Origin: Macrostomum lignano
Lineage: Eukaryota
Assembly (NCBI GenBank): GCA_002269645.1
Contig: NIVC01000105.1
Location: forward strand, 1-37,376
Length of the DNA: 37,376 bases
Reading direction: 5' to 3'
Below, in pieces: positions 2,404 to 37,376 of the stretch. The stretch's first letter is position 1. Each line of letters opens with the position of its first letter. Both the position numbers and the translations under genes were made by a program. The notes below the pieces were generated by a model. The model made no database searches and was not told the origin of the DNA. It was given only the letters and a program-made list of their open reading frames with translations.

Positions 2404-3132
2404 ATGACTAATGAATATATAAGAGAACTCATTAATTTAGCAAAGCAGCGAGAAATGTACAAATCCAGAAATGATGCTCAACGCTATTTGAAAATTGGAG
2501 AAGAGAGTTTATATGCAAGAGTGGCTCCATTAGCTCAAAAACCTGTCACAGAAAAGCTCGATGAATTTATTGATTTCAATGCCAACCTTGTTGATAAACT
2601 TCAGAATCAAAAAGTTCCAGTTCCGCAATCAAGTACACCAAAAGGCGATTTGAACCCTGAAGTATTTGACAAAATAATTGAAGAAATTGGAAAGATTCCA
2701 ATAACTCAAAGACCAGCGCCTAGTATACGGATTCAAAAAACTGATGCTGGATATATATTTGGATCATCTGTAATAGAGGTTGAATTCCATGAACAAGGTC
2801 GGACATCATTGTCAACGAATTCCGAATGCCATTTTCTGAAGATCTTGAAGAGTTGTTCAAAATGCCTAAAGTAACTGAAAATGGTGAAGAGCTGAAGCAA
2901 TTCAAGATGCAAACATTGCAGGATTATGTTAACCTCATTGAACACTTGTAAAAATCCAGCGGCCAAATCAAGTGGGAATTATAAGCAAGCAGTAAGGATA
3001 TTGAAAGATAATCCACCAGGATATCGAGTAAAACCGGGATCTGGACTCAGTGAAAGAGTGTTGACATTACTAGCCGCAAAAGCAGAGGGACATAACAATG
3101 TTGATAAAGAGCTAGTAGAATTACTTGCTTAA
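2404..3132 (+). pseudogene. Conserved Polinton protein (PZ/'GasderminX'-like), two frameshifts
   Basis: N-terminus LKIGEESLY...KPVTEKL, a shifted middle segment SDIIVNEFRMPFSEDLEELFKMP, and C-terminus GSGLSERVLTLLAAKAEGHNNVDKELVELL, which resembles the Maverick 'L.RL.LL.AS..AGN...NEI' motif. Confidence 0.6.
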
Positions 3133-3164
3133 AAAAAAAAGAAATAGAAAAAGTCAACATCCTC

Positions 3165-3923
3165 TTGAGTAAAAAGTTTCAACGCACATTTGACTTCTTT
3201 TCAATTAAAAACCCATTTCGACAAACTCTAGGCACTCCGATAAATTTGTATGAAGATCGAGAATACGAAGCTGGTATAAAAAAGTTTGCAGTCTTTGATG
3301 CTATTAACAATATTGAAGGAGGCAATAATGAGTTGCGATACTCGAGGGATAGTGGTAGAACATGGAAGAAAATAAAGATTCAAGCAGGATCTTGGGAAGT
3401 TAAAAGTCTGTCAAGCGAGATTCAAAGATTGCTAACAGCTGCAAATGATTGGAAAGAGGGGGCTATTGTTTTCAGTGCAAGCCTAGACACGCGTAGGGTT
3501 GAGTTACGGTTAGCCACAGAGTATCAAGTTGATTTCAGGGATGCACATTCCAATAACTTTAGAAGACTGTTGGGATTCAATTCGGAAGTGTATTTGAAAC
3601 CATTTGAGAGAGCTCCAAATCCAGCTCGGATAGACGGAGCTAGAAGTGCGATCATGGTTCGTTGTCTCAATATCAAAGGGGGTTTTATCACTGATCCAGC
3701 CAATGGAAATCATTTAATTGATAAGCAAATACTTCTTTCAATTCCATCGTTCTCTGTCCCAATGGGAAGTAAAATTATTCAAGAGCCTGCAAATCCTGTG
3801 TACCTACCACTAACTACAAACATGTTGAGCACATTCGACTTTGTCATCGAAGATGAGTCTGGTGTTCTATACGACTTTGATGGCGAGGAAATATTTATAA
3901 ATCTACACGTACGACAAATATGA
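3165..3923 (+). CDS. Minor capsid protein (penton, single jelly-roll); ORF open but ATG missing
   Basis: Polinton penton motifs GSWEVKSLSSEI, RRLLGF, IMVRCLNIKGG, VPMGSKIIQEPANPVYLPL, DESGVLYDFDGEE. The frame is open upstream through an A10 run (3131-3140) but has no ATG. Confidence 0.85.
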   Translation: MSKKFQRTFDFFSIKNPFRQTLGTPINLYEDREYEAGIKKFAVFDAINNIEGGNNELRYSRDSGRTWKKIKIQAGSWEVKSLSSEIQRLLTAANDWKEGAIVFSASLDTRRVELRLATEYQVDFRDAHSNNFRRLLGFNSEVYLKPFERAPNPARIDGARSAIMVRCLNIKGGFITDPANGNHLIDKQILLSIPSFSVPMGSKIIQEPANPVYLPLTTNMLSTFDFVIEDESGVLYDFDGEEIFINLHVRQI

Positions 3924-3932
3924 GTGTTAAAA

Positions 3933-4362
3933 ATGAGCGAAGCTGAGACATGGAATGCATTTAAACAAAAGTTTGGGACTGACACTACGACTAATATTGA
4001 TCTGATAAATTGGGCAAAATATCTCAAGTTAAAACCATTTCGCTATGCCATGAGAGATGAAATTGTTGATTTACCACAGTATGGTTACTTTATGACAAAT
4101 ATTCACACTTCGAAAGAACGGGGTATACATCATTCAGCTATCTTTTCAGCTCATGATAAGGTTTATTTTTTTGATTCCTATGCACTACCGCCCACTGGAA
4201 ATTATGGAAAAGTTTAATCACACAAAGAATAGAATATGTGGAGACATGGAAGAACAAATTCAAACTTTAGATAAGAAATTTTGTGGTCAAATGTCGCTGT
4301 ACTTTTTACATCGAATCGATAAAGGAGATAGCTATAATGAAATTTTGCAGCAATTAAAATGA
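3933..4362 (+). pseudogene. Adenain-family cysteine protease, frameshifted near 4190-4200
   Basis: Catalytic His (RGIHH), Asp (YFFDSY) and Gln/Cys (QIQTLDKKFCG) are split between ORFs 3924-4217 and 4153-4362. Confidence 0.88.
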
Positions 4363-5720
4363 GTTACAAGAATACTGCCAATCAATTTGGTTACTCGTCA
4401 AATTCAAATGATATAGCACCTGGAATAACAATAGCGTTAGCTGATGATCGATACATCAATGAAAATGAAGGATATAAGAGAGAGGAAATAGATAATTTAT
4501 TGTTAGCAAAGAGAAATGTTTCAGACTCTTATTCAAAGGAAGATAGTGACGCAATGAATATCACCATGCTACAATTAATTGACGATGCTCATGGGCGCGT
4601 AAACAATGTCTACACAAAAACCGAAACTGACACTAAGATGTATTCTAAAACCGAAATTGACACTAAGATGTATTCTAAAACTGAGATTGACACTTTGTTA
4701 GCAGAAAGGCAAGGTACTGTGGGGGGTACAGAGAGTTCGAAATTAGTCAATATTCTTTCATTACTGACTTCAAACGCTTCCGATCCTGACATGAAAGTGA
4801 CCGCTTCTCATAACTCTTCAGCAGCATATCATGTTGCAGATTCAAACCCAGCTTCAGAATGGAGCAGTGTAGATGACTCAGACAAGTGGATACGAGTTCA
4901 ATTTCTGAAAAGAGCTAGGAAAGTTGTAGAGATAAAGTTGGAAGGAGAGGTGTGGCCTGGTTGGTCTGTTAGTGTGAGCCTAAATGGAACAAACTGGACA
5001 CCTGTTGAACAAAGTGCACCCATTGAACTACGAAGGGGCAATGCACATCTTAGGAAAAAAATACCCAATCCCTCATATTATTTCCATTATTCTCTTAATT
5101 TTTCTGGTTCCGTAAAGCTTACAAAAGTTGAATTACTTGAGAGACAAACAGTGGTTAATGATTTAGTGTGGCCTATAGATAGACTTCAAGCTGTACCAAA
5201 GCTATACGTAGACAATGCACTTGAATCAGTGGAGCTGCGACTAAGGCGGGGACTAGGTTTCAAATCTTATACAGGATATATTCCCCACTAGCAACACGTC
5301 AAAACTATAGAGAAAGGGGTTTCAATGTAGCGTCATCAGGAGCATTTGAAACGTCAGATAATTGGGGTTATATAGTATCTAATTCAGAATGGGCATCGAG
5401 AATGAACCCAATTCTTACATTGAAGTACAACTTCCTGAATCTATTCAAATTTGGAAATTCGGATTGAAAGGAACCAAAGCAGTGGTAGTGAAATTATAAA
5501 AAATCAACCAAAAAGTTTTATTCTGAAAGGAGCAATAACAAGAGAGACTTTAGAATATTTTTTCTACCGAAAATGCTGGTTTAGTTCCTGGAGTGATGAA
5601 GTATTTTGAAGTAGCTTCCACGAAAAATTCTCCGTTATAGAGTGCATATTAATTCAGCCACTGAAGGATCAACTGTTCTTATTGTTTCAGGCTTTCAACT
5701 TTATCCGATTTTAGACATAA
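4359..5720 (+). pseudogene. Fibre/receptor-binding-like protein: YxKxExD repeats plus two F5/8-type-C (discoidin-like) domains, the second one frameshifted
   Basis: ORF 4359-5291 has 10-aa repeats (YTKTETDTKM YSKTEIDTKM YSKTEIDTLL) and a VTAS..AYHV..EW..KWIRVQF..WSVSVSLNGTNWT domain. Downstream shifted fragments (GFNVASS, SEWAS, SYIEVQLPESIQIWKFGLKG, FQLYP) form a second such domain. AATAAA lies near 5797. Confidence 0.6.
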
Positions 5721-5827: not shown

Positions 5828-6308
5828 GCAAGTAGGCAAACTTCACTCAGTGACTAACGCAGGAATTCGGGTTGTATATTTTTCATCTACTTTTGCTACA
5901 CACAGAAGCAATCTCGCAGAGCAATAATATGGTCGGCTATTGTCCAACCACCGTAGCAAAGCAAGTAGGCAAACTTTACTCAATGAGTAACGCAGGAATT
6001 CGGGGTTGTATATTTTTTATCTTATACTCTTGCTACACAGAAGCAAGCTCGCACCGCAACAATATGGTCGGCTATTGTCCGACCAAGATAGCAAAGCAAG
6101 TAGGCAAACTTCACTCGATGACTAACACAGGAATTCGGGGTTTTATATTTTTCATCTACTCTTGCTACACAGAAGCAAGCTCGCACCGCAACAATATGGT
6201 CGGCTATTGTCCGACCAAGATAGCAAAGCAAGTAGGCAAACTTCACTCGATGACTAACACAGGAATTCGGGGTTTTATATTTTTTATCTTATACTCTTGC
6301 TACACTGA
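5828..6308. repeat. Tandem array of ~3.6 units of 132-135 bp, each with two short hairpins
   Basis: GCAAGTAGGCAAACT recurs at 5828, 5961, 6096 and 6228. Units contain CTTGCT-N7-AGCAAG and TGGTCGG-N7-CCGACCA (perfect in units 2-3, imperfect in unit 1). Confidence 0.95.
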
Positions 6309-6313
6309 GTCAT

Positions 6314-6414
6314 GCATTCCATTCAGACCAAAACGCGAGACCAAAACGCGAGAAGAAAATTTCGAAAAATAAAAAGATAAAAATTGGTCTCGTGTTTTGG
6401 TCTGAATGGAATGC
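6314..6414. repeat. 30-bp inverted repeat (1 mismatch) with 41-bp A-rich spacer
   Basis: 6314-6343 GCATTCCATTCAGACCAAAACGCGAGACCA pairs with 6385-6414 TGGTCTCGTGTTTTGGTCTGAATGGAATGC. Confidence 0.95.
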
Positions 6415-6522
6415 GGGGTCTGACGTTTTGTCATAAAAATATATAAATGAATGGCCACGAGCGGCAAGGTCTAGTAATTTTTCTCTACTAACTTTACCTT
6501 CTTACAAAATATCATTCCTACA

Positions 6523-7099
6523 ATGCCTTCTTTCTCGAATTTGCACGAGAGGCTTACTGCCGCTAGAGCAACTCTTAGAATTCGTGAGCGAAATTTGCGA
6601 CAACACCATAGGAACTCAATGTTTAGAGATATTGCCATCAACATCTTTTTGGAGTATAACCCACAAAATTTGGCTAATGAAGAGCGCTTCTTTAATCAGC
6701 TAAAGGTTAGTTAAAAAGTGTTTTTACATTATAAGGTTTTAAGTTTACAAAAATCATATACGAGCGCACCAAACCCTTTCCTAGAACTACTATCTTCAAA
6801 AACGTCGCGTTCAAGAAGCAGAGAGGCGCTTGGTTGCTTATCGCCAAGATATGGAGCACCAACTAGCTGATATTCAACCAGAGGATAACCCGACTCAAGT
6901 ACAGAACCATCCAGCTCAGCCGGGGAATAATCAAGGGCTTTGTCCAATCTGCCAACACGAACCACGGCCACCAAACGTTACCATGGCATGTTGTCGAGCT
7001 GTGGTTTGTGAAATATGTTATCGCACCGGAATTCAAGAGGGCAACATGGTTAGGTGCCCAACATGCCGCGCTGATATAGAACCATCTAATGCGCCATAA
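6523..7099 (+). CDS. RING-finger protein (putative E3 ligase), predicted 2 exons: 6523-6705 and 6785-7099, ~165 aa
   Basis: C-terminal CPIC-x10-CCRAVVCEIC-x12-CPTC RING-like motif. A 79-bp GTTAGT...CCCTTTCCTAG segment joins ORF 6523-6714 in frame to ORF 6830-7099. Confidence 0.7.
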
Positions 7100-7263
7100 T
7101 TATCAACATGACTTGATATCAAACATTTATTAAGGTAATAATTTAAACAAATATATCATCGCTTTGAGCAGGCCACATTTAGCCCAATGGAGTTTGGCCT
7201 TTGGTGTCTGAAAGTCTTTTTCTGTTCCTGTGTTTATTTTTCTGTTTCTAAAAATAGACAAAA

Positions 7264-7480
7264 ATGTGCCCCGTTACAGATCCACGCAAGCTAAGAGAGT
7301 ATACAATAGGTGAGCCCCTAGAGTACAATGGAGAAGGTATTTTGATACTAGAAGCACCATTCCAACTTACTAAAAGACAATCTACCTCTCATAAGACAGG
7401 CAGGTGCTGCCGGAATCGCAAAGGCAGTCAATAATAAAAAAGCTGCCAATGAAGTAGGCGCAAAAGTAGCGAAAATTTAA
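7264..7480 (+). pseudogene. Second, degraded core-protein-like fragment
   Basis: FQLTKRQ followed, after a shift, by AGAAGIAKAVNNKKAA, matching the Maverick core-protein motif 'GAAGIAKAVN..KAA'. Confidence 0.45.
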
Positions 7481-7494
7481 GAAGACAAAGTATA

Positions 7495-7920
7495 ATGATA
7501 CACAGAAAATGCTAAAGTTGGATTATCTATAGAAATTTGCCCAAAAGAAAGCAAAAATGTTAAATTTTTCATAGAAAAATGGAAGCTAACCCAAATGTTC
7601 GAAATGCACTGCCACAAAAGTATATATGATTCTATTATAAATTTCTCTCAATAAAAACACCAACTCGAAAGGCTCGACTAATTGAAGAAATTGATAAAGC
7701 TTACGATGAATATAAAGCAGAAATATTAAAACACAGCGATTGTAAATGCCCCCCATATTTGTATTCATTCAGAGTATATCTTGCACATGTTGATAAATGG
7801 GCATTGATTTCGAGACAGCACATAAGGAATGATGAATTTTTCGTCATGCTTAAGTTGAACATTTTCAAACTCCCCATAACCCTTGAGAAGTACATTGAAA
7901 CTGATGAATTATATTGTTAA
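7495..7920 (+). pseudogene. Frameshifted hypothetical viral ORF
   Basis: Two consecutive open frames (TENAKVGLSIEICPKES... and TRKARLIEEIDKAYDEYKAEILKH...) joined by a shift near 7650; no recognisable domain. Confidence 0.3.
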
Positions 7921-7936
7921 ATTTATTTTAAATAAA

Positions 7937-10400
7937 ATGGAAAGAAAAAATCAAAACGATTCAAGTTTCTCTCCTGTGATCGTACAGGATCCGCTTCAAA
8001 ACCATGATGTCCCACCACCAAGATTGACAAATTTAAAACAAACAAAATCGTACGATAAACTAATTAATCTCTATGAAGAACTTAATTTTAGATTCGGAAG
8101 TTGCAGTGTAACATGGAATAGTAAAACAAAGAAAAAAATACCATCAGGAATGCCAACCAAAGCAGATAGGAATTCAACCTCACCACCATTTCGACCAGAT
8201 GTAGACAACATGATTTGGATAGATACTAGAAACTCAAATATAACCGTAATCGATATTGATAATGCTGACCTATGCCCTGAGTTGAATGAACTGTGTATGA
8301 CTCATTGTGATTGGGTTGTTCAGACAAACAAGGGACACCACTTTTACTTTAACAAAGTAGATGGATTGAAAGTAACGATTCAACAAAGTGTGGGTTTTGA
8401 TATTCCGCCTTAGTATTTGCTCCACCAGGTTTCTATTATGTCGATGGTGAAATTAGGGAATACAAACGTACAAAGTCCAAATGTTTAATAGACATGCGAG
8501 ATGTAATTCTTGATGAGATAAATAGATTAATAAAGCCACAGGATAAAAAAGAAAACCAAGAACCCGATAAACAGGCACTAAAAAGCACCGTTCCACCACC
8601 CACTTGTGAAGGAGCTTCAAAGTTGTTAAGTATAATACAACACAAAAACCAAGACTATGATTCTTGGTACAAGGTAGCACTTATACTCCGCGACATAGAC
8701 AGTGGTGATGAAATGTACAAAGTATTCACTGATTGGTCAAAAGTAAATTATGATAAGTTCGATTCCGAATCATGTAAAAAGGTGTGGAATAGCACCAGTA
8801 CCAGCTCTGCTGATGCACAGGACAGACTTACTATCGGTACACTAAAGAAATGGGCAAGTGAAGAAAACTATAACAAATATAAGGAATGGAAAAGCAAATA
8901 TGATTATTATGGTAGGATTGAGTTTCTTGATGATAATTTCACTGACGTTAATATAACCAACTTTGTTTATGAATATAAGAAGAATAATATAATTTACAAT
9001 AGCGATGGTATTTACTATTTTGATGATGATAAGTGGAGAGAACTAAGTAGTATAAATGACATATTTCTTAAAATATCACACCTTGTCAGCAGTGAGTTAA
9101 ACCACCGAAAGACTAGACTCGAAATTGCAATTAAGAAGGCGGCTGATGATAAAGAGAAGTTAAAAGCACTTGAAAAGAAACTACAGAGTACAATAAAGAA
9201 TATAAATTCAATACAAGGAGCCAACAAACTCAAACAGGTAACTACTTTGTTCAAAGAGAGGTTTACTAACAATGAAATTGAATTCGACATGAAATGGAAT
9301 TTGCTAGGGTTTAACGATGGAGTATACGACCTCCTTACAGGTGAGTTTCGCGAGTATAGATATGACGATTACGTTACTAAATCGGTGGGATATAATTACT
9401 CGGATGTACTTGGAGTGAGTGATTACGACTATGGCTTCATTGTTAATCTGCATAACCAAATTCATCCCGATCCAGAAAATAGAAAAAGTTGGGAATCCGT
9501 TATAGCCACAGCTCTAATGGGTAAGAATGTTGAAAACTTTATAATGTTTGATGGCGCTGGTGGAAATGGCAAGGGAGTTGAGGACAACCTACTTCTTAGA
9601 ACTCTAGGGTCTGATTATGCAGCACCACTGAGTCCTGATGTTTTGAATTTACCAATAAGAATAGACAGGCCACAACCAGCCCTAGCACAAATTAATAAAA
9701 AGAGGTTGGTTATCAGTCAAGAAGTAAGTGGTGTCTTGAACAATGCATCAATAAAATTACTAACTGGTGGTGGGGTTATCCAAGCTAGAAATTTATATTC
9801 AAGCCAGTGTAATGTCGTTTTACACACAACTCTGATAGTCGAATGTAATAACAAGCCTGACTTTAGACAAAATATTGGAGATGCAGAAAAAAGACGAATT
9901 ATAAATATTAATTACCCATGTAAATATACAGCAGATACCGACATCATTGATCATGCGAAACACATTTATAAAGCCGATTCATATCTTAAGACCGAGGAGT
10001 TTAAGAATAAATATAAGTTTGCTGAGATGAAACACCTACTAGAAATTTTCAAGCAAACAAAGGGTGAAATATATCGATCGAAAAGCGTAATTGAAAACAC
10101 TAATGAATTCATACAGAATTGTAATTGGTTTGCTCACTTCTTTGAAGAGAATTATGAATTTTTAGAAACTGAGGAAAAAACATTTTGCTTATTAGAGAAA
10201 TTTACACTGCCGCAACAGAGAGTGAATACTATAGGACTCTAGCCCAACGTGAGAAACGTGAATTCCAACAACAATACATAACAGATTTCTTCAAGAATCA
10301 CAATGACTATTGTAAGTATTATAAGGATAGATATAGGCGTAGGATAGATGGTAAACAGCAAGAAACTAGAAATGTTCTGTTTTACTGTGTAAAAAAATAA
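7937..10400 (+). pseudogene. D5-like primase-helicase: PrimPol (AEP) + PriCT-2 + D5_N + SF3 helicase + C-terminal domain; two frameshifts
   Basis: AEP motifs VIDID and TNKGHHFYF; shifted LVFAPPG; PriCT-2 DYDSWYKV..WS..KVWNS..TIGTLKKWA; D5_N LLGFNDGVYDL..GEFR; Walker A GAGGNGKG, Walker B ISQE, motif C VECNN. Shifts near 8410 and 10190. Confidence 0.9.
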
Positions 10401-10421
10401 ACGAAGATGTTATCAATGAGA

Positions 10422-13397
10422 TTACATTGGCTGATGAGGAATAGATCTGATAGGATCCAAATAATATCTTTTATCATCTAACGGACTCATTGTTTGTTTC
10501 ATAATCTCACGAATATATATTTTATTTTTTTCAGATACAGTCATACTTACTCTACCTCTTTGAATATCTTTGTAATCTGTCAATAGTATGTTTTTAAAAG
10601 TTTCAAAATTTATATTTGTACTGCTTTTATCAACCCCCTTGATCGTAACACATTCCCCTGAAACTGTAGTGAAAGCATACTCCTTTGACCGCAGGAATAC
10701 AGCTTCGGAAATTATTGAGCCATTCATTTCATCTTTCAACTTTCCAATAACTTTCTTGTTCGTCTCGGAGTATAGTGGATGCTCTCTTGGATAATCCGAT
10801 GTGTCTAAGTGTTCTTTAATTTTTTCAAGATCCTTATAAACATCTTGAGTAATCACTGAGAATATTAGCGAATCACAATCAGAATAGTGCAATTGACAGC
10901 TGTTCCAATTCTTCTCAATAAAATTGTAATAGCAATCGTACATTAGCATTTTTGCATAATCCAGAATAGCCATTCCTAAATAAATTGGCTTGTCACACGC
11001 AATTGTCTTTTTGTACATTTGGACACCAACTGCATCCTCACTAAACATAATGAAATCTTTGAAACTTGGTTTGGAAAAATAACGCCTTGCAGTTTTTTCT
11101 TCAGCTACAAGATGAAAGTTCGACCTATTCTTTACATTTTCGATTGTTTTACCGTAGAATGAATTGTTCAGTAGTTTCCACAGGTCTTTCTCAAATTTAG
11201 TTTTTGCTTCCATTCTCTGCCTGGTATTAAATTCGATGTATTTACTCAACCAGTTTGACTCTTTGAATGAAAGAATTCTATGAACTCTCATAACTCGCAT
11301 GCCCATCTTCTCATAAAACTCAAGTAGTCTGTGATGTAAAACATATTTCTCCTTGTTGTAAAATGTCAACATCAACTTGGATTGAACAAACTTTTTCTTT
11401 TCGACTTCGAGGTATTGCTTCTGTATATCAGATAAATCCTCAAACCTAGTTGTTCGTTTCTCAGGAGCCAGTGGATATTTACTTGTAGCTTTCTTACAGT
11501 CCTCTGTATATTCAAGGTCAACTTCAAGAAAACAACCCCTGCCATTAGGAATATTCTTGTGATACTCTAGATTATTTTCAAACTTGAAATCTCCCACAGG
11601 TAGATTTTTCATCATTGCTTCACCATATAAATTATTCTTGTCCAAGTATAGCATGTACGACGATTCAGAATTGCTGTCATAACTTTCTAAATACTTGTTA
11701 TTCATTTTTTTATATCGATCTCCAAGAACTCCAGAGAAACCGCCGCGAATACCACTTTCTACCATGGATATCATTTCTTTATCACCAAGTAATTCCAATT
11801 CCACATTAGTATATTTCAACCCACATGCCCACGATAATCCAGAAAGGGAAAAGCAATACGCAGGATCTATCTTGAAATATTTCAAAAATGTTGATCGAAA
11901 CTTCTCAAAAGCGTTGACAAATGAGTAAATCTTTCTAATTACTGCTGTTGTATCACTGGGTGGCAAATATTTTATTTCTTCTTCAGAGAGTGTAAATGGT
12001 GGTTCCAAAAACCTAGATCCATCTAAAAACACAACACCACTGGTATAATTCCCCCACTTAATTGCAACATGGTCTTCCGATGTTTTAGAAATGAAATCCA
12101 ATTTATAAGCTGTATTCTTTATTCGTGTTAATGGAACTATCAAATAGTTTAGATCTTTTCCAGATTCATTCAGGAGAAACAACGGTACCGTTTGATTCGC
12201 CTTGCCCTCCTTGGTATTACATGATTGACATGCTGCGCCGCGATATTTACCATTGTAGTGATTATGCTCTCGAATTTTTTTACTATCTACAAATGGCCTT
12301 GAGCAGAGAAAACATTGTTCTGCCGCTTTGTAATCAGTCTCTTCGACATCACTTAATCTTGGATGTTTATATCTATCCATTTCATTTTTTATATGCTCAA
12401 ACTTTTTTATTACGGTTTCAACGAATGATTCCACTGTAGTATTTAAAATAATATTTGATTTTATAATGTCCTCATAGTCGGAACTAGTAAAAAGTGTCCA
12501 TTGTGATAGCTCTAGTGATTTATCATCCATCGTTACATAATCTAATATTGCATAAAACACAAATGGTTTTCTTACACTCATGTGGTAGTTTTTAAACTTT
12601 AATATCCTCTTATCAATCTTTGGAACTTCAATTGACACTTTGAAGTCATTACAGATTGCTTTATGATTATCCAGTGCATCCTGGGAGTATTTGACTTGAA
12701 GACACTTTCGACAAAGAAAAACCCTGTTGTAATTTTGGGACGTGAGGAATAAACACAAGTCTGTTATTAAGCAATAATGATTTTCAACAAGTAGTAAATC
12801 AATAACATTGGGGTTGTCGTAATCTTCTGTCAGACGAATAGAATATATTGACTCTTTAGTATTTATATCCCTCAATCCAAACACATTTATATGAAGACTG
12901 TTCAACTTTTCAATCTCAGAGATATCTCGAATGTCCACTGGAAATTTAACGTCTCCTAAGTTTATTTCATTTATATACTGTGTATACTTACCAACTCTAT
13001 ATCTATGTTCCTTCACAGGATGGAGCTTTGCTAAAATAGACCAGAGAAAGCACCTATTGTCTTTAGTGTTCTTAACATTTACTAATGCGTTTGATTTAAT
13101 TGGAATTAGAATATAAGTTCCTCCTTTCAACTGATTAATGCCAACAACTTTCAACACAATCTTTACTAACTTAACAAAATAATATCCTGATCCCCTTTCA
13201 TTAAAACTATCCTTCCATCCATCGAATTCATCCAGAACATCCTGAATTGTACTTTCTATACTAGTTTCCACTTGGAGAAGATTTAACAAAGTTCGATACT
13301 TTGAATGATATTGGAACTCAATCCAACTGTCGGTAGTTCCTTTATAAAATTCTGCGACAAAGGAAATTCTGTATTTTATTGAATCTCTAGCCATCAA
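10422..13397 (-). CDS. Protein-primed family B DNA polymerase (Polinton group-2/betaadintovirus type) with vOTU-like and EndoVII-like Zn-finger segments; degenerate exonuclease
   Basis: 991-aa open frame with motif A YLDKNNLYG, motif B KLLNNSFYGKT, motif C YSDCDS, KVIGKLKDE, a TPR1-type insert LEVDLEY..YPLAPE, DDKRY, and CxxC..HNHYNGKYRGAACxxCN. The frame stays open upstream to an ATA at 13478. Confidence 0.95.
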   Translation of the reverse strand: MMARDSIKYRISFVAEFYKGTTDSWIEFQYHSKYRTLLNLLQVETSIESTIQDVLDEFDGWKDSFNERGSGYYFVKLVKIVLKVVGINQLKGGTYILIPIKSNALVNVKNTKDNRCFLWSILAKLHPVKEHRYRVGKYTQYINEINLGDVKFPVDIRDISEIEKLNSLHINVFGLRDINTKESIYSIRLTEDYDNPNVIDLLLVENHYCLITDLCLFLTSQNYNRVFLCRKCLQVKYSQDALDNHKAICNDFKVSIEVPKIDKRILKFKNYHMSVRKPFVFYAILDYVTMDDKSLELSQWTLFTSSDYEDIIKSNIILNTTVESFVETVIKKFEHIKNEMDRYKHPRLSDVEETDYKAAEQCFLCSRPFVDSKKIREHNHYNGKYRGAACQSCNTKEGKANQTVPLFLLNESGKDLNYLIVPLTRIKNTAYKLDFISKTSEDHVAIKWGNYTSGVVFLDGSRFLEPPFTLSEEEIKYLPPSDTTAVIRKIYSFVNAFEKFRSTFLKYFKIDPAYCFSLSGLSWACGLKYTNVELELLGDKEMISMVESGIRGGFSGVLGDRYKKMNNKYLESYDSNSESSYMLYLDKNNLYGEAMMKNLPVGDFKFENNLEYHKNIPNGRGCFLEVDLEYTEDCKKATSKYPLAPEKRTTRFEDLSDIQKQYLEVEKKKFVQSKLMLTFYNKEKYVLHHRLLEFYEKMGMRVMRVHRILSFKESNWLSKYIEFNTRQRMEAKTKFEKDLWKLLNNSFYGKTIENVKNRSNFHLVAEEKTARRYFSKPSFKDFIMFSEDAVGVQMYKKTIACDKPIYLGMAILDYAKMLMYDCYYNFIEKNWNSCQLHYSDCDSLIFSVITQDVYKDLEKIKEHLDTSDYPREHPLYSETNKKVIGKLKDEMNGSIISEAVFLRSKEYAFTTVSGECVTIKGVDKSSTNINFETFKNILLTDYKDIQRGRVSMTVSEKNKIYIREIMKQTMSPLDDKRYYLDPIRSIPHQPM

Positions 13398-13515
13398 ATA
13401 TTCGGAAAGAATTGGGGAGATTAAACCGCGAATTTCTTCAACGGAGTCGAGATCGAATTCATAAGAGGCCGCTGGTATTTTTTTTTTTTTTTTTAAGAAA
13501 AAAAATTAAACAGAC

Positions 13516-14256
13516 TCAAGCATAGGGGGGTGCACTTGGAGCATTTGATTGAAGATTGAGTGTTGCCGAGTACTCTTTTGGCTTATCAGCTAGACCCAAT
13601 TTTTCTCTCAGATCTTTCTCCAGCAGTTCCTTTTTAATTTTTTCCTTCGCTGATTGACCAAGTCTACTCTCTTTGAGGATTTTATCAACGACTTCCGAAT
13701 GGTTAACTTCTTTAGGCGCAACACAGGTGTCTAACAATTGGTCTCTTTTCTCTCTGTATTCTGAATAAATTGCAGCAGCTGCTTGAACCTCTTCAAGAGT
13801 TAATCTATAATCATCAACTGCTTTTTGGGAGTAAATATACAATCTCTCTCTGTATTGATTTGCCAGATCTCTGAGAACAATGTATTTTGCCTTCTGCTTT
13901 TGGCAATGCATTTTCACAGTTGCAAACAACGACGTGGATTTTACAGCTTCAAAACCACTCATTGCCCCGATTACTACTCCAATAACTAAGGGATTCAATG
14001 TCAGTATCGATGTTGCTATGCCAATTCCTGTAGCAGCCAAGAGACTTACATTTCCTGTCACAATGTTGATCCAATTTATCCTGCTACTTTGTCGTTTGTA
14101 CTTTTTTACCTTTTTGCTATAAATTGTAAGATCTTTCGTAATGCATTCAATACTGCCTTTGATTTCACCCTTTCTCTGATTGAAATAGTCCCGCTCCCTC
14201 AAATCTGCTTCATGCAGCTCAACCACAGGATAGATGTGTTCATTTTTTTCATTCAT
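13516..14256 (-). CDS. Polinton membrane/coiled-coil protein with C-terminal PSAP motif
   Basis: Intact ORF (likely ATG at 14256, MNEKNEHIYP...). Hydrophobic hairpin INIVTGNVSLLAATGIGIATSILTLNPLVIGVVIGAM, a basic coiled coil before it, and terminal PSAPPYA. Confidence 0.7.
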   Translation of the reverse strand: MNEKNEHIYPVVELHEADLRERDYFNQRKGEIKGSIECITKDLTIYSKKVKKYKRQSSRINWINIVTGNVSLLAATGIGIATSILTLNPLVIGVVIGAMSGFEAVKSTSLFATVKMHCQKQKAKYIVLRDLANQYRERLYIYSQKAVDDYRLTLEEVQAAAAIYSEYREKRDQLLDTCVAPKEVNHSEVVDKILKESRLGQSAKEKIKKELLEKDLREKLGLADKPKEYSATLNLQSNAPSAPPYA

Positions 14257-14774
14257 TTTTATATGGCGATTATGCCTAATTGTCAATTATGTCTATACCT
14301 GACTGAATATCTAAGGCATTTCCTAGAAATATTGGTTTACTGAAGGCCATTTTATATATATATAATTTACTATCGTTGAATTGGATGACACTTTCATTTT
14401 GTATATACCTGAAATTGCATTAAATTGACCCGAGGATCCAACTTTTCTCATGGTTTTTGAGCTGGAATCGTGAAAATTGCACTTTTTCAAAATTTTTGAA
14501 AATCACAAAAAATCGCTGTTTTCAGACCATTTTCACCTGTTTTTAGTCATTTTTCACTTATTTTTAGTGATTTTCAAAATGAGTGAGGGCATGAGGGCGA
14601 GGGCACCCCCCCTTTTTAAAAGTATAAAAATTCCGGAAATTCTGTGTTCTGTGAAATATTCCACAGGCCAATGCCCCCACATGCCCTCACCCTCAACACC
14701 CTCACTCACAGATATATGTATATTTATATATTTTTATATTTATCACACACACACTTGAATCCATGACCACCTGC

Positions 14775-14875
14775 TAGTAGTAGTATGTTATAAGGGGCTG
14801 AGTCATCCAGCGAGCTGGCGCGTAATGCGCCCGAGCAATAAGTGTGGCGCAGCCCCTTATAACATACTACTACTA
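14775..14875. repeat. Perfect 26-bp inverted repeat (101-bp hairpin); candidate right terminus of the Polinton
   Basis: 14775-14800 TAGTAGTAGTATGTTATAAGGGGCTG is the exact reverse complement of 14850-14875, with a 49-bp GC-rich spacer. Confidence 0.9.
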
Positions 14876-15310
14876 ATCTCTTTTGTTGTTCTTGCGAATT
14901 CTGCTCAACCCCAGGGCACAGGACTCGCACACACCCAGCTTCCAACTAGTAGATAGGCAAAACATGAGGGACTCCATAAACTGAAGCTGAGTGGGGAAGC
15001 TGGAAAGATTGCTCTAGAGACATTTTGAGCAGTTCGACTTAGGGAATGAGGAAGCAGAGGAGGCTGGAGCTGGACTGTTCCCCAATGCCCGCTAATGCCC
15101 AAGAGGCGGCCGGCCACTCCACCAGCGCGCAGAAGTTCTGGCTCGTTTCTGGGGACGAAAATTTTTAGACTGCTAAGCCGGCCATTCATTATGCCGTTGG
15201 CTCTTTATTAGATTAGTGCCATGCAGAATGGGCCTCCGTGCGGTTGGCGCTCCGGCCGCGGCGGCAGATGAGCCTCGCCTCTGTCTTATACTGCTCTTTG
15301 ACTGCGGCTG

Positions 15311-30771: not shown

Positions 30772-33700
30772 ATGAGACGCTCTTCATCGGACTGGAGCAA
30801 CCTGGGCTCAGACTATGACGAGGCCCGTCGCAAGGCTAACCAGGTCATCATCAATGTCAACCAGTTCTTTCCATTGCTGGATAGCGAAATTCGCGTCTAC
30901 AAGGACAAGATGTCCTATTTGGGAGATAACAGCGTCGGCAAACCGCTGAGACCGTTTCCCAATGTTGAAGGAGCGATAGAAAAAGCTGGCACACTGCCAA
31001 GTATCAAAGAGGAAGAGGTCCCACCTGCAGAAGCCCCTGACACCCAGACCGAAGACTCGACACTTTTTGCCACCGAACTTGATGGCGAGCAGCAGCAGCG
31101 GCAGCGGCAGGCTACTTCGACGCCAAAGTCCGCCGCCACCGGGTCTCACGACGATGAATGGACGGCAGATCGAAAAAGAAAAATTCTCACAATGAAGCAG
31201 ACAGTTGAAGAAGCAGTGGCAAGGTATGTCAAGCTTTCATGCAGAGACGCCGTTGCATGTGAAGAAGCGCCATTTTATTTGAGGGTGCATCAAATCATTG
31301 TTGAAAACCGCCTGAGAGTGTTGTATCTCGGTTAACAACTCATGAGGGTTAATTACAAAAGCACAGAGAGTGTACATGACTGGCAATATTGACGCGCTTG
31401 CATCAAGGACTACTTAACTAGAAGAACACTAAACTCTAAAATGATGGCAAAATAGTTGAAGGCCGATTTTTATTTTCCCCATAAATTTTGATAAGTGCAT
31501 GTATGAAGATGATGTTTTGACTCGGAAGCGCAGAATTTATTCCTCTTTCAACCAAATTGTTACTCGTGTCTGTAGCTTCAGGTGTTCCAAAGAATAGTGT
31601 ACAGTAAAGTACACGTAGCCCCAATTCAGTAACTTAACTACTTAACTAGAAAAGCTTAAAACAATATAGAGGATTCATGTTCTATAAGATCGGAAAATAT
31701 CAAGTAGCCATTTACTATCGAAATCTTAAAGGAAGCCGATCTCGTCATGACCATGTTGTGACTCTATAGAGTGAAATCAACCACTGAAGGAACTCCTGAC
31801 TACACCACTCAAAAATTCCCATCTAGTTAATGCATTTTTTGTCGAAAATCGGCCTTCAACTATTTTTCCACGAATCATGAGTTTTACGTCCTCTTATATG
31901 CTAGTGGTACTTGGCTTGCTTGAGCTCAGGAGTCAGTGGAGTCAGAATCGGTAGAATTGTGTGGTGTTCTTATCTGTAGATTGCGTCCCTATTTTATTTC
32001 ATCCGCATTCAACTCCCCTCCCTAAAAACGCTACTCCACCGCAGGCACTATCGCGACGCGATGCTCGCCTTGAAACAGGGCGACGATTTGACAGCCATGC
32101 GAAAGCTGCACCGCTGCATCGCCCTCCGACCAGACGATGCGGATTTCTATCACCACCGAGCCGAGCTGTTTGTCCGCCAGTGCGACTTCCGATCAGCCAT
32201 AGCCAACTACCGGAAGTGCATGCGACTGCAGCCGGAAGCGGCTGGCTCGGCGGGCTACTGGGACCGATTGGCGTTTCTGTATTTGTTCTACGGTCAGACT
32301 CTGTTTGATCAGGGCTACTACGCTGAAGCGTTGGAGAACTTTGCTAAGGTAAATAATAGTAAAAATAGCTTGCTTAATTCATATAGTTAAAACAGTCATT
32401 TTTGATAACCAACTAATTAACGAGCACCTAATTAGTGAGAAAGAGAAGAGCAATCTACGTGCAAAAAGCAATTCAAAAACAGATATCTAGATGAGTTATT
32501 TCTTAATACAATAAACATCGATTTGTTTAGTTAGACTTTATAAGAAACCGCTTGATCATGCTGAATTCAGATAAAGTAGAGAAGAGATGAGAGAAAAGAG
32601 GAAAGGATAAAGAAAGGAGGGAGACGAGAGAAGAAAGTTAAACGGACCGGATCGCCATTGAGAAGTTTCAAAGAACCCAAGGGCCGGATAGAGGGATGCC
32701 GTAGCCAGTGGTCTGGCGCTCTTATGTACCAGCGGCCCAGGCTCGATTCCAAGTGCAGTCACATTAACTTGGACTAAATTGGAACTTCGGCTTGGCTCTG
32801 CTCGCGCTAGTAACGGTCTTGAGACCCGACCCCCAAAGCACAGTGAAGTGTACATGCCTAACGATAAATAAAGTTAGGGCCGCTGTACACTCCTGTGTGA
32901 CTGTGTGCCTGTGCGTATGACTGCGTACGTATCCGCGCGCTTGTGTGCCTGCTCAGGGAAGTTGTGAGAAAATGTCGCTTGAAGTGCGCCAGAGTGCACA
33001 CAGCCCCCTAAATATGGGGGCCGGATACAGAGGCTTCGTGGGTCGTATTTCTTCGATGTCTTTACAGTCTCTCATGCCGAATCTCCACAGGCTTCGGAAA
33101 TGCAGCCTGACAATGTTGCGTACCAAACTCGCAGCATCGCTTGCCTCACAGCGCTGGGCAGACACTCCGAATGTCTGGCCTTGGTCAACAAACGCTTAGA
33201 AACGAACAATAGTAATCCTGATTTGTACGTGATGCGAGCTAGGCTGCATTTCATATTCAAGAGCTACACTTTGGCTTATTACGATGCCAAGGATGCGTTG
33301 GCCATTTCGCCCGGGCATTCGGGCGCCGCTCAGATGAGGGACTATCTGTTTGAGTCGGCGAGGAACTATGGAAGGTGAGGTTTTTTGAGGTATTTAGGAG
33401 AGAAGTAGACAGGATCAGGTCTGGTTGTATATTGCAGGAGAGAAGTAGACAGGATGAGGTCTGGTTGTACATTGCTGGAGAGGAGTAGACAGGAAGAGGT
33501 CTGGTTGTATATTGCTGGAGAGGAGTAGACAGGATGAGGTCTGGATGTACATTGCTGGAGAGGAGTAGACAGGATGAGGTCTGGATGGACATTGCTAGAG
33601 AGGAGTAGACAGGATGAGGTCTGGATGTACATTGCTGGAGAGTCGGGATGTACATTGCTAGAGAGTCGGGATGTACATTGCTGGAGAGTCGGGATGTACA

Positions 33701-34830
33701 TTGCTAGAGAGTCGGGATGTACATTGCTGGAGAGTCGGGATGTACATTGCTGGAGAGTCGGGATGTACATTGCTGGAGAGTCGGGATGTACATTGCTGGA
33801 GAGTCGGGATGTACATTGAAAGGAAGTTGAGAAACCTAACGCACTCTATTCCATCCAACACTTCGTTCCCCTCAGACAAGCTGTCGAGCTGGCCATCAAC
33901 GGTCGCCTTCGAGAGGCGCACAAGAAGGCCAGCCTGGCAATCGACATGGACCCATCCGTTGCCGAGTTTCACGTTCGTCGAGCCGCTTTAAATCGTCGGC
34001 TTGGCGATTTCAACGCCGCCGTGGAGGACTGCCTGATGGCCATGGACAAGTGCGACCACGATCCAGCGTCTAAGCCTTTTACGGACGCGCAGCGCCAACT
34101 GCTGTTGACGTTCAACGACTTCGCCGTCGAGTGCTACATGAAAGGCTTCTACGAGGAGAGCGTCGGACTGTTAGAGAAAGCGATCAAAGCTGAGAAAGAA
34201 GAGAAAGCGCTCTATATTAATAGGGGCGACTGCTTCTATCGGCTTGGTCGGCTGCAATTCGCTCAGTTAGACTACGAACAAGTGAGGGCTTGAAGTCCTG
34301 TGACTGGGCAAATGCTGAACACGAACACGGGGGTGTAACAGTGTTATTGTCTTTAAATTTGTCAGAGCGCTACATAATCTCTATTACAGGGTCTTAAAAG
34401 TTAATGAATCAATTTGTTTAGAAAACAAAACATTAAATTTTTAGGCCTGGGATTTGGATCCCAACGATTCGTCCATTGGCCTCCGTCTATCGCTGGTTCA
34501 CCACCGGATGGGCCAGGCCGCCTTCCAAGAGAAAGATTTCGCCAAGTCGGTTGACTGCCTGACTCGCGCCATCGAGCGCAATCCGCTCTGCCACCACCTG
34601 TGGACCGCCCGGGGTCGGTCGCGCTACTTTCAAACTGACTTGAAGAATGCTCAGGTGGACCTGGCTGTTGCTTTGCTGCTCAAAGCCGAGCTCGACGAAG
34701 CGATGAGAACCCTGCTAACGAGGCTGTTTCCTAGTGTGCCCACGGATAAAATTCTGACTGGAACTACCGGGCTAAGACAAAAGGCGGAGAAGGAGCTGGC
34801 CAGGTTAGTTCACTAGTGGAATTAGTTAGC

Positions 34831-36072: not shown

Positions 36073-37376
36073 TTTTAACAAATGCTTCGACTGAAATACA
36101 AGGTCAAATCGGGGACAATGACGCCAAACTGAGTCTGGCCAGACAGTTGAACGAATGGACCCGCGCTCTACTGCACTTGAAAGCCTGGCGTCTCGTCTTT
36201 CTCATACCGTCAGCTGTGCTGCTGTTCTCCGGCGCTTACCTGTCAATCATTCTGAGCAGATTCGATCTGGACGCTGACTCAGAGCTGCGTTCTATCGGAC
36301 TGTGGATATTGGAACTGCCTGGAAACTTCAGGGGGAAAACAGGCCAGCGAAAGCGACACTCTGCAGCTTGAAACCGTCAGTGGCATACGCTGGGACAGTC
36401 AGCTTGACCTCTTCTGCACTGTTCCGGCAAGGACTTGCATTGAGCAGTTGCTAACCAGAGCGAATAATAACAAAGGTAAACTACTTCTGCAGACAGTTGC
36501 CAAGGCTAAGTCTTCCCCAATAATGCTGGAGTGCTTAGCAGAGAACTCCAGCAGCTTTGACTGCAGTCTTCTCTACCAGCCGAAAAAAGCCAAACCTAGT
36601 CAGCTAAGCGCGCTGAAAGAAATCAATCTGCTTTACTTTGAAACTTATGCCAACGGTAGTGTGAACAGCACTTACAGAAATCCGCAGGTCCCAGTTGCAA
36701 CCGACACTGTACCAGCTAGGCCCCAAGCGAAAGAGACCAAGCAAAAGTTATGCAACTCAAGCAACAAGCTGTTTCGCACAGTTGTAGCAGTTTCTTTCTC
36801 GATCAGTACCATGGCTGTAATTCTCTACTTCAGCTTATCCACAGCGTACTGTATCCATCGGCTTAAAATGCATAATTTTCTAAAGCTACAACACCTCAGC
36901 GGTTTGTGCGCGACGGCTTTCTGGCTACCAACGTTTGTCATCACTATCGTCGAGTGTCTGGTACTGTCAGGCGTGTTTGTGGCTGGCCAGGTTATTCAAT
37001 GCCCAGAATTGAGACTGGCATCTCATAGGGCTTTTCGAGTATTGATTGTATACTTTTTGCATAGCATTAGCCTGGCTATGCTGGCAATACTTTGCGCTAC
37101 AGTTTTGACTTACGCAGCGGCTTGCACTCTGATGATGCTGCTGAACATGGCATTGATAGGGAGTTTCGCGTACGCGCCAGGCCTCCTCGAAAGCGGAGCC
37201 ACCGCTGTCCTGTACCTTTACCCGCCTATTAGCAGTCTGCAAGTTGTGGAAAGTCACGTAGCATCCGATGGAATTGAGCTGCTGACCATCAGGCTGCAGC
37301 TCATCACAGGAGCATTTTTCCCTGCATGTTCGCGACACCCATCATAATAGCGATTGCTATTCTTTACCTGGACTTC
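36073..37376 (+). CDS. ABCA-subfamily-like transmembrane domain, with two apparent homopolymer frameshifts; runs off the window; 5' end uncertain
   Basis: TM1 (WRLVFLIPSAVLLFSGAYLSIIL), a luminal loop, then LKLQHLSGLCATAFWLPTF (like the ABCA 'K.LQ..SG...YW..F' motif) and several TM helices. The frame changes at GGGGGAAAA (~36331-36339) and TTTTTCCC (~37314-37322). Confidence 0.6.

Follow-up and report, generated by a model that had tools for sequence, protein, structure and literature searches.

Loss of the 3′–5′ exonuclease from protein-primed family B DNA polymerases (pPolBs), a domain conserved in other family B polymerases, is described in passages of PMC11161782 as accompanying helicase gain in mavirus and in PLVs, and the same passages propose that acquisition of the helicase compensates for the missing exonuclease, the two cases being highly diverged and coming from protist viruses. 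In mavirus-like virophages the polymerase with its terminal protein (TP) and vOTU adjoins a separate SF3 helicase gene (S3H; passages of PMC11161782), and in PLVs carrying Tlr1-like helicases exonuclease loss likewise goes along with an SF1 helicase (S1H), fused to pPolB in a single protein (parts of PMC11161782 and PMC5499653). Since OmPLV, according to a passage of PMC12721341, combines an SF1 helicase fused to pPolB with full exonuclease, helicase gain does not force exonuclease loss. At group level exonuclease motifs are conserved in 20,702 pPolB1 and 1,331 pPolB2 homologs (a section of PMC10748475). The combination of pPolB with a primase-helicase is called “not common” in one passage (PMC3671162), and Polintons with D5-like primase-helicases as well as multi-replicase polisuviruses harbor pPolB and S3H or AEP-S3H within one element (passages of PMC4405056, PMC3671162, and bioRxiv 10.64898/2026.10.13.758929). 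The last of these sources describes genomes with two replicases, repeat brackets, and mobile AEP-SF3 genes, the word “exonuclease” being absent from its text portion, and for D5-bearing Polintons and polisuviruses in general neither exonuclease loss nor a flatworm family is reported in the text passages, figures and supplements aside. Besides, a Prim-Pol/SF3 protein can be the sole replicase in PLVs (parts of PMC11296320 and bioRxiv 10.64898/2026.06.19.733378). Here, we consider an animal Polinton in which pPolB and a D5-like primase-helicase stand tail to tail. The first-pass annotation of this DNA, made from the letters alone, had emphasized the pairing as such, whose novelty turns out to be smaller than suggested, pPolB with a D5-like gene being already in print for some Polintons; what merits follow-up is that, in a multi-copy family of an animal, the exonuclease has been lost selectively next to a primase-helicase that is intact.

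The window (the whole analyzed stretch of 37,376 nucleotides) is occupied from its base 1 to position 14874 by a Polinton with GC content of about 35%, whose left end lies beyond the window. Like animal Polintons/Mavericks (adintoviruses), for instance those of the Parasteatoda house spider and Mytilus edulis, it possesses a PF21738 DJR capsid, A32 ATPase, protease, and AGT-type end, and its polymerase belongs to the same endonuclease VII-bearing pPolB family with about 40–50% identity over the polymerase half. The capsid module proposed earlier was corroborated by Pfam matches and similarity to ORFs of polinton loci. On the + strand it includes the DJR major capsid protein (MCP, 242–1609; PF21738 with E 7.6e-14, extent by tblastn), the profile of which matches 7 fetched loci (best 9e-40), and an A32-like packaging ATPase with an in-frame stop near 1950 (1631–2401; Pox_A32 with E 1.4e-4, and 2e-28 to an ORF of polinton locus L002). 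They are followed by a probable minor capsid protein (3108–3923; E 1e-22 to 1e-28 to ATPase-adjoining ORFs in L001, L002, and L004), so labeled from its position, without a Pfam match, and by a probable capsid maturation cysteine protease lying in two frames in this copy (3924–4362; E 8e-8 to an ORF of L112 and about 1e-4 to L002 and L004). Both were labeled by their similarity to polinton loci that carry no annotation, and the protease also by His, Asp, Gln, and Cys motifs recognized by eye. A fibre-like protein with F5/8 type C domain (4341–5291, +; PF00754 with E 1.2e-6), the domain being present in polinton locus L001 as well, precedes about 3.5 tandem copies of a 132–135 bp unit and a hairpin with 31-bp arms (5828–6414; arms 6314–6344 and 6384–6414), which separate the capsid module from the replication arm and may serve as a candidate internal origin or module bracket. 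The element further contains a RING finger ORF (6785–7099, +; PF13920 with E 7e-5) and a 246-aa ORF with a hydrophobic hairpin, weakly SLATT-like (13516–14256, −; SLATT_1 with E 0.026), for which look-alikes without a named family were met in viruses and molluscs (score 0.92, recognition below threshold). No integrase was seen in the visible part of the element, and comparison of the window with ORFs of 17 polinton loci, one of them an rve integrase, gave no such match. The animal host, assumed previously, was confirmed by the MCP, which is 100% identical across 296 aa to a sister-copy protein assigned by name to Macrostomum lignano; four accessions of this kind are listed for Macrostomum lignano, therefore several copies of the Polinton family exist, and the element is a member of a multi-copy, recently mobile Polinton/Maverick family of this flatworm. 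An MCP scan of viral_contigs and genome_contigs gave no match.

The Prim-Pol/PriCT-2/D5_N/SF3 gene, which had been recognized on the + strand from the letters, is supported at about 7904–10400 by Pfam and homolog matches. In this copy the frame is broken close to 8400 and again close to 10180, and the three resulting pieces match successive parts of unbroken homologs, for example P0134. The Prim-Pol (AEP) piece (7904–8413, the start at 7937 chosen earlier being its second ATG) matches PF09250 with E 8.8e-4, which is below Pfam’s cut-off, and the N-terminus of P0134 with 4e-29; the piece 8401–10242 matches PriCT_2 (8e-12), D5_N (4e-13), and DUF5906; the C-terminal piece in another frame (10176–10400), detected by tblastn of P0134, P0135, and P0283, stops at 10398–10400. 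A profile built of the window piece and 7 homologs matches the structures of ASFV C962R, vaccinia D5, and mpox E5 at about 1e-23. Primase motifs DxD and TxKGxH and the third Asp are intact upon alignment with 21 other Prim-Pol domains, and positions of helicase Walker A, Walker B, motif C, and arginine finger are kept, as are 37 of the 46 helicase columns conserved in 150 homologs. Thus AEP, PriCT-2, D5_N, and SF3 domains with catalytic motifs, i.e. the full set of a D5-like primase-helicase, are all found, the AEP by a match of the above sub-threshold kind.

In the tree of 148 rows this protein falls into a clade of 9 environmental sequences (support 0.995), the best members of which are 40–46% identical to it and are unnamed or termed just “primase”. 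Three clade members come with DNA, namely L026, which ends at the gene, L027, and L032; in the latter two, ORFs lying tail to tail with the primase-helicase (L027:1967–2884 and L032:1081–2247, 70% identical mutually) show recombinase-like motifs by eye. Searches of Pfam, PHROGs, NCBIfam, and PDB sequences gave no support for the recombinase label, and a poor model of an ORF of this type (pLDDT 45) placed Xer recombinase at rank 3 with E 1.3. The layout resembles the PLV end module of AEP-SF3 and tyrosine recombinase described in a passage of PMC11296320, the convergent partner in the window being pPolB, and nothing in the window matches either of the two recombinase-like ORFs. Since the nearest primase-helicases reside on small environmental contigs beside a recombinase-like gene, the donor of the gene was probably a PLV-type replicon. 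Accordingly, of the affinities considered in the first-pass annotation (NCLDV, virophage, or PLV), the PLV type is suggested, while the NCLDV core D5 is not. A further PLV arrangement, with AEP-S3H in place of pPolB, usually tyrosine recombinase, and no protease, differs from the window, where both pPolB and a protease-like gene are present.

On the opposite strand, pPolB (10422–13505) converges with the primase-helicase as had been noticed initially, the stop codons being divided by a spacer of 21 bp (10401–10421). Its open frame extends between 13505 and the stop at 10422–10424 and comprises 1027 codons, or 990 aa if counted from the first ATG at 13394, before which no in-frame ATG exists in this copy, a homopolymer run occupying 13478–13494. 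The product is composed of TP, vOTU, zinc finger, an eroded exonuclease with endonuclease VII insert, and polymerase; thus the protein-primed PolB with TP and vOTU typical of Polintons is present, and vOTU Cys152 and His243 are kept. Totally, 699 relatives were found, and for the structural model (mean pLDDT 58), which is weak in the eroded region and C-terminus and was used for fold class only, phi29 DNA polymerase accounts for each of the nine top fold matches (best E 1.6e-7). Motifs A and B and both motif C aspartates are preserved, with Cys in motif C instead of Thr found in 135/135 homologs, and 36 of 42 conserved columns are kept in the thumb region, a value as low being met in only 5/127 homologs, so that the polymerase half is somewhat more worn than in most homologs. 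In the tree of polymerase halves (134 of 137 rows kept) the protein is sister to P0044 (support 0.96) inside an exonuclease-intact clade, with a branch length of 0.71 substitutions per site. The 55 closest pPolBs could not be traced to any locus, the close pPolB clade has no match in viral_contigs, and exact sequences of PolB, both primase pieces, and the 246-aa ORF are absent from the protein collection. Nine contigs of GTDB bacterial MAGs (L106–L114) carry Polinton-type PolB genes, one of them, L112, with matches to MCP, ATPase, minor capsid, and protease as well; they probably represent eukaryotic DNA binned into bacterial MAGs. Judging from loose ends at 10463–10499 in three sequencing runs, the organism seems to harbor another Polinton family, which has only about 36 bp of the PolB 3′ end in common with this one.

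As judged from alignments, this pPolB has lost its 3′–5′ exonuclease selectively and through in-frame changes, a loss overlooked in the first-pass annotation. Relative to 11 homologs, ExoI is converted from YxDFE to YAILD, ExoII is partly altered, and KGxxPY together with the ExoIII stretch is missing, everything in frame. The eroded region spans 11868–12599 (−), and the exonuclease halves are shortened to 87 residues vs a median of 106.5 before the endonuclease insert and to 107 vs 178 after it. If a column is considered conserved when at least 90% of homologs are alike, 15/34 exonuclease columns are kept compared to 104/117 in the polymerase (Fisher p 2e-7 with columns treated as independent; p 0.008 for 15/23 ungapped ones), while conserved columns of other parts are preserved completely: 14/14 in vOTU, 5/5 in zinc finger, 9/9 in endonuclease VII, and 2/2 in TP. 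Intact ExoI–III motifs are typical of Polinton pPolBs but are not found here. In the alignment of the window protein with 120 proteins and 16 locus ORFs, all five scored exonuclease residues are kept in 116 of 131 region-spanning homologs, i.e. in the animal Polinton relatives, the other 15 consisting mainly of fragments, records with gaps, and single changes. One contig of run X1, the sole spanning one among those listed, covers 10869–13558 with 25 other letters and 1 gap, therefore the erosion is not private to this copy. An assembly artefact as the source of exonuclease loss was rejected on the same grounds, the spanning contig being independent. The nesting of pPolB among exonuclease-intact homologs implies that the loss is derived, and an open frame of 1027 codons on so long a branch argues for long selection on the remaining parts.

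To what extent the pair is a trait of the family follows from sequencing runs, 20 of the 24 listed (7 studies, one organism) holding 60–69% of the words of 6500–14900, one of which may be the source of the window. Four of them (X1, X3, X4, and X15) were compared with the window at 85% likeness, 32 of 2146 pieces being listed. Listed contigs of X1, X3, and X15 (3/4 runs) bridge the junction between the two genes, and the listed X4 contig ends at 10418. Depth of the listed contigs over primase, helicase, and PolB amounts to 881/960/802 in X4 and 146/154/122 in X3 against 106 and 28, respectively, on the flank, bearing in mind that contig depth is no copy number, as the tool itself warns. Junction-bridging contigs and the like depth demonstrate that sister copies carry both genes, so the one-off insertion initially admitted as an alternative is set aside. 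The frame breaks of the primase-helicase are unlike in the listed contigs (the first in 3/4 runs, the second in 4/4); not being common to the runs, they are private to this copy or its assembly. Over 6500–7650 the listed contigs show lower depth than over the replication arm and many indels, and the part with the RING ORF is probably variable cargo present in only some copies. Third positions account for 10/18 copy differences in the helicase frame, 2/8 in PolB, and 1/4 in primase, among the 40 listed of 453 differences. In X1, by guess an RNA run, depth drops over the terminus, which was not counted as evidence. Within the pPolB family at large the pair is not the norm, in agreement with the initial expectation: none of 26 related loci, of which 12 extend at least 2 kb downstream, has a D5 or Prim-Pol gene, and PolB of this family was detected at none of 88 primase-helicase loci by the family profile, which could miss distant pPolBs, many of the contigs being short.

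Thus, the claim of two replication-initiation systems in one element stands in that the pair is real, and fails with respect to pPolB as an ordinary self-sufficient enzyme, its exonuclease domain being lost. Compared to mavirus-like virophages, the window pPolB retains much of the exonuclease scaffold, Prim-Pol and PriCT-2 are joined to the helicase, the capsid belongs to the Polinton type (PF21738, as in L001, L002, and L004), and the host is an animal; judging by the nesting of pPolB in the tree, built of its own homologs without mavirus, the exonuclease-less state appears to have arisen separately. Unlike the fused PLV protein with its SF1 helicase, the window encodes two convergent genes with an SF3 helicase. 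It is possible, although less likely than not, that the locus represents a third independent origin of the replisome made of exonuclease-less pPolB and a helicase, and the first one known from an animal Polinton, with the exonuclease scaffold half gone and with TP and primase priming on one genome. If true, it would be the intermediate required by the Polinton-to-giant-virus scenario, in which D5 was gained before pPolB was replaced, and it would be available in a multi-copy family of a laboratory animal. No literature report of an exonuclease-less pPolB in an animal Polinton, or of the Macrostomum family, was found in mostly open-access text, gene tables in supplements being relevant too; the text parts of PMC8502044, PMC11131425, PMC10120064, PMC4642659, PMC11071296, and PMC5499653 contain nothing on the pair of pPolB and primase-helicase. 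Polinton insertions in a flatworm are mentioned in passages of bioRxiv 10.1101/2025.04.19.649669, where gene content is given in a figure and may depict the same family. The locus provides a concrete case of replicase change in Polintons and of a D5-like primase-helicase joining a protein-primed genome (PMC4405056), and many close exonuclease-intact relatives (about 50% identity) make the loss mappable residue by residue and the proposal of PMC11161782 testable by comparison.

The exonuclease domain of phi29 polymerase serves strand displacement as well. The reading we prefer, with a probability of about 0.5, is that both genes form one cooperative replisome, in which exonuclease-less pPolB primes at the ends and the helicase unwinds. 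An ancestor with complete pPolB would have gained the Prim-Pol/SF3 gene from a PLV-type replicon, whereupon the hexameric helicase could take over unwinding and the exonuclease domain would be freed to erode. During replication, vOTU would release the terminal protein, which would prime at the AGT-repeat ends; the exonuclease-less polymerase would then follow the helicase, and the primase might prime the displaced strand or restart stalled synthesis. The replisome would thereby work like that of mavirus, where exonuclease-less pPolB is accompanied by a separate S3H, except that this state would have arisen independently and that the helicase bears a primase. The coupling of exonuclease loss to helicase gain is seen here in a single family, therefore the two changes could also be independent.

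Exonuclease loss indicates either dependence on a helicase or replicase turnover, and the latter, with Prim-Pol/SF3 as the real replicase and pPolB decaying slowly, exonuclease first, and perhaps retained merely as a source of the terminal protein or for completing the ends, deserves consideration as the main, albeit unlikely, alternative, because such an order of events is proposed for PLVs in a passage of PMC11296320 and group 2 Maverick-Polintons often swap pPolB for helicase or AEP-helicase genes (passages of bioRxiv 10.64898/2026.06.19.733378). Some wear in the polymerase half and the unusual motif C would agree with decay, but the wear is strongly limited to one domain and stays in frame, motifs A and B, both aspartates of motif C, and vOTU Cys/His persist, the long pPolB branch bears no stop, and the recombinase-like gene adjoining the closest primase-helicases has no counterpart in the window. 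Even if turnover were true, the locus would be a rare snapshot of replicase change in an animal.

It is quite improbable that the two proteins represent separate initiation modes, as envisaged in the first-pass annotation, pPolB acting from linear ends and the primase-helicase at an internal origin at 5828–6414 in another state of the element (episome or the factory of a helper virus). In favor of this view, neither initiator domain is damaged, a repeat array with a hairpin that resembles an origin is located inside the element, and repeats bracketing the second replicase are reported in passages of bioRxiv 10.64898/2026.10.13.758929; nevertheless, this leaves the selective exonuclease loss unexplained, the origin is a look-alike only, and, as depth to the left of about 7600 is below that of the replication arm, the array may be missing from some copies. 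The same preprint, in part, proposes mobile AEP-SF3 genes and collaborative homing, whence the primase-helicase could be a selfish passenger, possibly helped by endonuclease VII in the adjoining PolB, with exonuclease loss being unrelated. We consider this very improbable: the closest relatives of the gene do occur in another gene context, but with depths so similar for the two genes few copies without the primase-helicase are to be expected, no repeats flank the gene, and its codon use fits the element, correlating with PolB and capsid genes (r 0.83 and 0.85) and not with the host (−0.4).

By definition, Polintons are bordered by terminal inverted repeats with AG...CT ends and accompanied by target-site duplication. 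The right terminus with its local hairpin (14775–14875) ends with ACTACTACT at 14874, where the ACT repeat terminates, and flank contigs start at the next base, 14875. About 50 bp further in lies a perfect inverted copy of the terminal 26 bp, and the two together give a local hairpin (DNA fold −36.1 kcal/mol, z −7.8). A comparable AGT hairpin was not seen in 17 polinton loci, most of which are without their ends. Among the 24 loose ends listed of 267 in all, at least 5 differing ones, from run X15, fall at 14874, and in X15 and X4 the flank contig from 14875 continues into about 800 letters of non-element DNA; since these contigs lack the element, they may be read as an empty-site allele, hence a recent and possibly polymorphic insertion. 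A chimeric origin from two elements is not favored, as AGT/ACT terminal repeats occur only at 14776 and 14866, the reads having been compared over 6500–14900. It may be added that a single strand of the right-terminal hairpin could fold back and self-prime at the element end, and that this hairpin and the one at 5828–6414 each span 101 bp, with no sequence likeness between them. In the flank, host exons are recognized for a TPR protein (31980–34816, +), with host-like GC3 of about 0.66, and for an ORF with ABC-2 membrane domain (36256–37347, +).
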